A DNA stretch of 32,000 nucleotides, from assembly GCF_008000775.2 (NCBI RefSeq), contig NZ_CP042905.2, forward strand, positions 60,001 through 92,000, written 5' to 3'. This document shows, piece by piece, positions 6,758 to 26,085 of this stretch. The stretch is from Promethearchaeum syntrophicum (GTDB taxonomy: Archaea > Asgardarchaeota > Lokiarchaeia > Sigyniarchaeales > Promethearchaeaceae). Below the pieces are notes generated by a model. It saw nothing but the letters and a program-made list of their open reading frames with translations, was not told the DNA's origin and did not search any database. Position 1 is the first letter of the stretch, and every line of letters begins with the position of its first letter. The translations under genes and the position numbers were made by a program.

Positions 6758-7384
6758 ATGCCAATAGAATTTGAAAAAATACTTGATGATTTGTTCGCAA
6801 AAGGCATCGTGATTGCGGCTGTTGTTTGCAGACGTAACGGAGAAATAGCCTATAGCTCATCGAACTGGAGTGTTGATCCAGGTGATCTTTCACAATGTAT
6901 TAAAAAGTGGCAATCTCGTGGGCAATTTACTCATTTACAAGATCGTAAATACGCATTACTTATGAATACACCAGAATACTTTAGTGGAATTAATTTCAAA
7001 GATAAAGATTTCTTGTTAGGAGCCGCTTCTCTGGATGAAAACGATCGTTATTACGTAATTGGGTATGCACCTCCAGGAGTTTCAGGAAGAAATGCATACG
7101 TCGATGTTGTACGGGCTGCAAATCAGATGAAAGAAGGGGTATATTTAGATGAAACTGCAAAATTGGGAAAATATGATGATACTCAAGTTGCAGCGGACGC
7201 AAGTGCTGCGGGTGGAATAGTGGATAACTCCTTAAAACAAGAAATTGATGGATTCTTAACTTGGATTCGAGATACAAATGGCTTATCCGGTTACATTCAA
7301 TATTATTTAGATCAAAATGATCCGGTTGTTTTAACAAAAATAGCCAAGGCATATAATGATTTTCGACGTATTTTTGGGTTTTAA
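6758..7384 (+). CDS. Profilin-like protein with a C-terminal extension of about 80 aa
   Basis: The first ~125 aa follow the profilin layout: N-terminal helix (IEFEKILDDLF), IAAVVCRRNGEIAYSSSNWSV, LQDRKYALLMNT, FLLGAAS, YYVIGYAPPGVSGRNAYVDVVRAANQMKEG. This resembles what I recall of Asgard profilins. Not verified by search. Confidence 0.55.
   Translation: MPIEFEKILDDLFAKGIVIAAVVCRRNGEIAYSSSNWSVDPGDLSQCIKKWQSRGQFTHLQDRKYALLMNTPEYFSGINFKDKDFLLGAASLDENDRYYVIGYAPPGVSGRNAYVDVVRAANQMKEGVYLDETAKLGKYDDTQVAADASAAGGIVDNSLKQEIDGFLTWIRDTNGLSGYIQYYLDQNDPVVLTKIAKAYNDFRRIFGF

Positions 7385-22987: not shown

Positions 22988-26085
<3,098 letters not shown>

Follow-up and report, generated by a model that had tools for sequence, protein, structure and literature searches.

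A C-terminal three-helix module on a profilin of Promethearchaeum syntrophicum recurs across one order of Asgard archaea

Profilins from Odin and Loki archaea bind actin monomers. The Asgard profilins with solved structures, namely Odin profilin (5ZZA chain P), Loki profilin-1 and -2 (5YED, 5YEE and 5ZZB) and a profilin extended at its N-terminus (7PBH), are single-domain proteins of ~120–145 aa. Although Asgard archaea possess actin, profilins and gelsolins, neither a machinery for nucleation or elongation nor a means of localising profilin-actin is known in them (PMC9433394). Published extensions of Asgard profilins, in Heimdall and Thor, are N-terminal and disordered, and their deletion alters polyproline and PIP2 binding (PMC8410842). 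Furthermore, the two-domain gelsolins of Loki/MK-D1 join an actin regulator, through a linker of ~70 aa, to a small lineage-specific terminal domain (PMC9433394).

Here we describe a tailed profilin encoded in the closed genome of Promethearchaeum syntrophicum (4.32 Mb, G+C ~30%), within a stretch of 32,000 nucleotides (NZ_CP042905.2, positions 60,001–92,000), hereafter the window. Its core has the same fold as the solved Asgard profilins and detectable sequence homology to them, including common motifs (NW…, KYS/A.L and G..GA), at an identity of only 20–27%, and the tailed protein differs in adding a short motif, a disordered linker and a 53-aa module. Whereas the Heimdall and Thor extensions are N-terminal and disordered (PMC8410842), this one ends in a folded C-terminal domain. 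The layout is that of the Loki/MK-D1 gelsolins, except that their terminal domain is Zn-binding (PMC9433394) and that of the tailed profilin a three-helix module. Domain shuffling is typical of Asgard signature proteins, hence an appended domain is unsurprising in kind.

It was already known that an ortholog, B35_Pro1 of L. ossiferum, is listed as a profilin, its tail going unmentioned in the main text of that preprint (bioRxiv 10.1101/2025.11.30.690169). New here are a free-standing gene for the module, its phyletic range, the selection acting on it, its strict C-terminal placement, the recognition of B35_Pro1 as the ortholog together with its proteomic and co-IP values, and a conserved neighbourhood with fusions. 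Both the new domain family and an apparently unannotated 50-aa gene have been missed by current databases, and they offer an experimental approach to the way in which actin assembly is localised in Asgard archaea.

A profilin core with a conserved extension

The initial annotation of this gene had placed the end of a profilin-like core near VRAANQMKEG, followed by an extension of about 80 aa made up of an Ala/Asp-rich linker (QVAADASAAGG) and a predicted helical segment. These strings lie at aa 118–127, 143–153 and, for the last (EIDG…IFGF), 162–208, and the description held throughout. The alignments to PF00235 and to 5zza_P both run to aa 125, the ORF and domain boundaries bear out the extension, which 47 full-length homologues keep, and AF2 predicts disorder over aa 137–155 and then three helices. 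The protein consists of a profilin core, a flexible linker and a three-helix module (Table 1), an anatomy in which we have very high confidence.

Table 1. Coordinates of the tailed profilin gene, its parts, its neighbours and two related genes of the same genome. Positions without a prefix are those of the window.
Feature	Position	Strand	Basis or remark
Tailed profilin gene (P0001)	6758..7384	+	ORF list and translation; 208 aa, ATG to stop
Profilin domain, aa 1–126	6758..7135	+	PF00235, PDB matches, AF2, Foldseek
Short conserved motif after the core, aa 127–139	7136..7174	+	Alignments A1 and A2
Variable low-complexity Ala/Gly/Ser/Asp linker, aa 140–155	7175..7222	+	pLDDT, length variation, dN/dS
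Three-helix C-terminal module, aa 156–208, ends …FGF	7223..7381	+	AF2, profile search, dN/dS
Zinc-finger gene, 172 aa	6236..6754	+	Upstream neighbour, separated from the profilin gene by 3 nt
248-aa protein with hydrophobic helices	7487..8233	+	Downstream neighbour
Pro-rich protein with C-terminal CxxC…H…H domain, 192 aa	5529..6107	-	Neighbour; alignment A5
Free-standing 53-aa module, ends FGF	G000:C1:3111598-3111735 = L013:1498-1659	-	Same genome
Tail-less single-domain profilin (L001), 140 aa	G000:C1:1470875-1471297 = L001:1456-1878	+	Same genome

Residues 1–126 are a genuine profilin domain. PF00235 aligns to aa 6–125 (profile positions 4–123 of 127) with an E-value of 0.003 and a score of 18 bits, short of the gathering threshold of 25 bits, and five homologues of the tailed profilin have a precomputed match to it. 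The Pfam profilin model is weak on Asgard sequences; as the score is sub-threshold, the homology rests on PDB and fold matches. A phmmer search of the PDB returned the Odin profilin 5zza_P (E 2.3e-7 over aa 2–125) and 7pbh_A (E 2.9e-5). In the full-length AF2 model, built on 47 homologues, the core has a pLDDT of 80–90, with aa 1–122 forming a helix, seven strands and a C-terminal helix, in keeping with the profilin fold, in which helices at both termini flank an antiparallel central beta-sheet. When this model was searched with Foldseek, the top 18 matches were all profilins, archaeal and eukaryotic (E 1.6e-10 to 3e-4), led by 5zza_P (E 1.6e-10, target-normalised TM 0.82, rmsd 2.1 Å over 118 columns) and including Loki profilin-1 and -2 as well as those of Acanthamoeba, yeast, plant and human. 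Every match spans only ~110–135 columns, hence the tail lies outside the profilin fold. As the matches are to profilins and cover the core alone, a single non-profilin fold spanning the whole protein can be set aside.

The same genome encodes a tail-less, single-domain profilin, which exceeds the Pfam cut-off in a genome search (L001, Table 1). It is only 21% identical to the tailed core, and the tailed profilin is therefore considered an old paralogue.

A protein search recovered 55 homologues of the tailed profilin (E down to 1e-130), mostly of 200–216 aa and all from Loki-type Asgard sources. Directly after the core, the short motif is predicted as coil with falling confidence, and its residues Y129, G137 and K138 are conserved in at least 90% of sequences (alignments A1 and A2). 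AF2 pLDDT is below 50 across aa 137–155, and the linker, in which Ala, Gly and Ser abound, measures 12–27 aa among homologues. Mean top-residue frequency among the 47 full-length homologues is 0.76 for the core (aa 1–126), 0.43 for the linker (aa 140–155) and 0.78 for the tail (aa 156–208). The ratio dN/dS, calculated by the Nei–Gojobori method for the window gene against two close relatives, is 0.02–0.03 in the tail and 0.04–0.10 in the core, with the linker at about 0.3, some ten times the value of the parts on either side. Purifying selection on the tail is at least as strong as on the core.

The L. ossiferum ortholog (L004, UYP46361.1; 207 aa, 22.83 kDa) is 70% identical, agrees in length, tail and gene neighbourhood, and is publicly annotated as a ‘hypothetical protein’. 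It corresponds to ‘B35_Pro1’ in Supplementary Table 3 of a recent preprint, where it is listed as a profilin (bioRxiv 10.1101/2025.11.30.690169).

A frameshift, an assembly error or read-through could in principle have joined a profilin gene to an unrelated ORF. The architecture is, however, the same in the 55 database homologues and is kept in about 150 genomes; across the order, the 153 genomes with a match have open frames of ~205–243 aa around the best match, without an internal stop among the matches listed, and three closed genomes are among those with the uninterrupted tailed architecture. FGF stands directly before the stop in all eight related loci translated that far. Moreover, the 22.8-kDa ortholog has been detected by proteomics. 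Since the architecture is conserved and the tail is under strong purifying selection, such an artefact is excluded, with almost no chance left to it.

Fold, carriers and distribution of the module

The tail is predicted to form an independent unit of three helices (aa 157–171, 176–186 and 189–206). The initial annotation had recognised no obvious family for it, and none emerged from the databases: Pfam gave no match for the tail alone nor for 29 diverse modules scanned singly (E up to 10), NCBIfam gave none for the tail, PDB sequences had nothing significant against the tail profiles A3 and A4, and a Foldseek search with the tail-only model returned 0 matches in PDB and 0 in BFVD. A SARAH-type dimerisation domain was considered and rejected, the only match being the SARAH domain of RASSF5 (2ymy_A) with a non-significant E-value of 0.79 over 22 residues. 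An HbYX-type C-terminal docking motif was likewise discarded, as most modules end in F-G/N-hydrophobic and not in hydrophobic-Tyr-X. The module is unreported in the literature searched on extended Asgard profilins and gelsolins, which leaves room for an earlier mention of the extension.

The tail profile A3 was searched against 1.84 billion representative proteins and yielded 58 matches, 55 of which were judged true after the removal of three repeat proteins. In ~45 of 54 cases no more than two residues separate the module from the C-terminus, and it ends in hydrophobic-Phe-(Gly/Asn)-hydrophobic; a Tyr (Y199 in the tailed profilin) is invariant. Profilin is by far its commonest carrier, with a full core in at least 18 of the 55 representative clusters. 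Three or more divergent profilin subfamilies end in the module, and several of these tailed paralogues may go back to a single ancestor that already had the tail, without repeated fusion events. A further four carriers belong to the Ras family of GTPases (PF00071, best E 1e-34), and one is an LRR protein (P0089). Two metagenomic proteins combine several of these elements: P0084 contains a Ras-like GTPase, the module, a gelsolin repeat and then the start of a profilin, and P0072 a coiled coil, the module, a polyproline tract, a profilin and a Zn-ribbon. Both serve as Rosetta-stone proteins that connect small GTPases with actin regulators in Lokiarchaeia.

Nine carriers of at most 70 aa consist of the module alone, giving a free-standing form of 50–66 aa, and matches of 71–135 aa in the same search may be truncated genes. 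The stand-alone domain looked for in other genomes thus exists as copies of ~50 aa. In the window's genome the module occurs exactly twice, as the profilin tail and as a free-standing ORF of 53 aa (Table 1), whose gene is probably uncalled, as its exact sequence is absent from a collection of 15 billion proteins. Orthologous free-standing copies occur in L. ossiferum (L049) and in four genomes of family f3 (L052–L058), where they lie between DnaJ-CxxCxGxG-like and DEAD-box helicase genes. This context is not common to the window's genome and is hence uninformative as a functional clue. L. ossiferum likewise encodes the module no more than twice, once as the profilin tail and once by itself, and its gelsolins therefore lack it. 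As it recurs in different domain contexts and alone, the module is an autonomous mobile unit.

To define its range, we searched 400 genomes of the Asgard phylum, 153 of them from the window's order (families f1–f4). The module was present in 152 of these 153, usually in 2–3 copies, and in none of the seven genomes from other families of the class or of the ~240 from the rest of the phylum. It constitutes a new domain family confined to one Asgard order.

A putative docking role for the module

Our preferred reading, to which we give an even chance of being right, is that the module is a portable protein–protein docking handle, deciding where, or with whom, profilin works. A globular domain, a long floppy linker and a small terminal domain together resemble a typical tethered targeting or docking layout. 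Judging from its sequence homology, the core would bind monomeric actin, presumably Lokiactin, as characterised Asgard profilins do. On its flexible leash of 12–27 residues, the module would leave the activity of the profilin domain unaltered and instead set its site or partner. Its target might be a receptor common to the carriers or else further copies of the module, the free-standing 50-aa version included. Profilin(-actin), some of the Ras-like GTPases and the remaining carriers would thereby be gathered at one site, with the free-standing copy as partner or competitor. Because profilin is the commonest carrier, the role of the module could also be profilin- or actin-specific, and not general docking.

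The initial annotation had suggested either recruitment or autoregulation by the appended domain. In the latter case the tail would fold back on its own core and mask or tune the actin- or lipid-binding surface. A precedent exists in Heimdall and Thor profilins, whose N-terminal extensions influence the binding of ligands (PMC8410842). The length of the leash would let the tail reach every face of the core, and a conserved motif (aa 127–139) stands between core and linker. However, the tail is modelled with less confidence in the full-length protein (pLDDT 70–80) than alone (pLDDT 81), and overall pTM is only 0.55, hence there is no sign of fixed tail–core packing. A lid specific to the profilin core would also fail to explain a module on Ras GTPases, on an LRR protein or by itself. 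Recruitment fits better on both counts, and we regard intramolecular autoregulation as quite unlikely. Recruitment through the module may conceivably stand in for the polyproline-ligand logic of eukaryotes; to our knowledge, the characterised Loki profilins do not bind polyproline.

The villin headpiece (PF02209) is a small, aromatic, three-helix F-actin-binding unit located at the extreme C-terminus of actin-binding proteins, behind a flexible linker. The module is alike in layout, although by analogy only, as the taxonomic range differs and the module's carriers include GTPases. If the tail bound Lokiactin filaments in a headpiece-like manner, profilin and the rest of the carriers would be tethered to these filaments, and most carriers are indeed actin regulators (profilins and one gelsolin-containing fusion). 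Against this, neither PF02209 nor any other Pfam family was reported for any of the 29 modules (E up to 10), Foldseek found no PDB structure for the tail, and the module is also attached to GTPases and an LRR protein.

Published data on the L. ossiferum ortholog weigh weakly in the same direction. B35_Pro1 is present in the proteome at a mean log2 intensity of ~19.5, versus 17.4 for the 14.5-kDa Pro2, yet its enrichment in a Lokiactin co-IP was non-significant (log2FC ~0.31, p ~0.17), which does not demonstrate absence; the tail-less Pro2 was significantly enriched (bioRxiv 10.1101/2025.11.30.690169). The main text of that preprint covers Pro2 only and mentions neither Pro1 nor its tail. The non-enrichment of Pro1 would fit a tailed protein engaged elsewhere, and headpiece-like binding of filaments appears unlikely.

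The GTPase carriers also raise the question of a membrane or lipid anchor, with an aromatic tail inserting peripherally in the manner of the hypervariable region and lipid anchor of eukaryotic GTPases. In three of the Ras-family proteins (P0068, P0071 and P0076) the module follows a linker of ~100 residues rich in Lys, Ser and Pro, the position of the eukaryotic anchor. Furthermore, the tail is 17% aromatic, and the product of a neighbouring gene has two hydrophobic helices. The module is, however, slightly acidic (net charge -1, pI 4.9), is predicted to be a compact bundle and not a single amphipathic helix, and matches no lipid-binding family, leaving a membrane anchor very unlikely.

The module is order-wide and portable, and is found on profilins and small GTPases in the group of both cultivated Loki-type archaea, Promethearchaeum and L. 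ossiferum. As a defined unit that can be cloned, it gives a practical means of identifying the missing partners.

Conserved gene neighbourhood

Orthologs of the tailed profilin fall to 30–36% identity across the order while their neighbours are retained, namely the upstream zinc-finger gene, TFB and the Pro-rich/CxxC…H…H protein. The N-terminal part of the zinc-finger protein contains CxxC…HxC, and the protein matches zf-C2H2_4 weakly and below threshold (PF13894; E 1.9e-4; 22.3 bits, cut-off 27). Its gene is single-copy, occurs in 132 of the 153 genomes of the order and in one outside it, a phyletic pattern near that of the module, and adjoins that of the tailed profilin at almost all of the related loci inspected. 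A relationship to the Zn-ribbons of the module-bearing fusions was considered, but BLASTP gave E-values of only 0.2–0.3 and an HMM of 28 zinc-finger orthologs found no match among module-bearing proteins, hence only the adjacency stands.

The downstream gene, which adjoins the profilin gene in family f1 and at part of the f3 loci, encodes a two-TM protein with an N-terminal globular part and two hydrophobic helices, and its product has no sequence match in Pfam or PDB. In the Pro-rich protein on the opposite strand, PPPP stretches occur twice, the motif ‘IPxxPxKK’ is conserved, and the C-terminal CxxC…H…H domain spans ~75 aa. This domain is fused to the two-TM protein in two loci (L041 and L039), one paralogue in L041 has four APPPPKLPGSVS repeats, and the source genome holds four weaker copies of the domain (L061–L064). 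That the gene for a polyproline protein adjoins a profilin gene is a noteworthy pairing.

A more specific form of the docking reading, which we consider doubtful, is that the module is the Lokiarchaeial counterpart of eukaryotic profilin recruitment and delivers profilin-actin and Ras-like GTPases to a membrane-proximal assembly site. Such a site might be built by the products of the neighbouring genes, the two-TM protein and the Pro-rich CCHH-domain protein. Were this true, the cultivated archaea closest to eukaryotes would localise actin polymerisation in a manner peculiar to their lineage.

A scan for sigma-70 promoters and terminators gave counts not above those of shuffled sequences, the sigma-70 model being ill-suited to archaea. 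Elsewhere in the window, between positions 23000 and 26000, G+C rises from ~30% to 46–51%, a pattern typical of rRNA operons where the genome is AT-rich.
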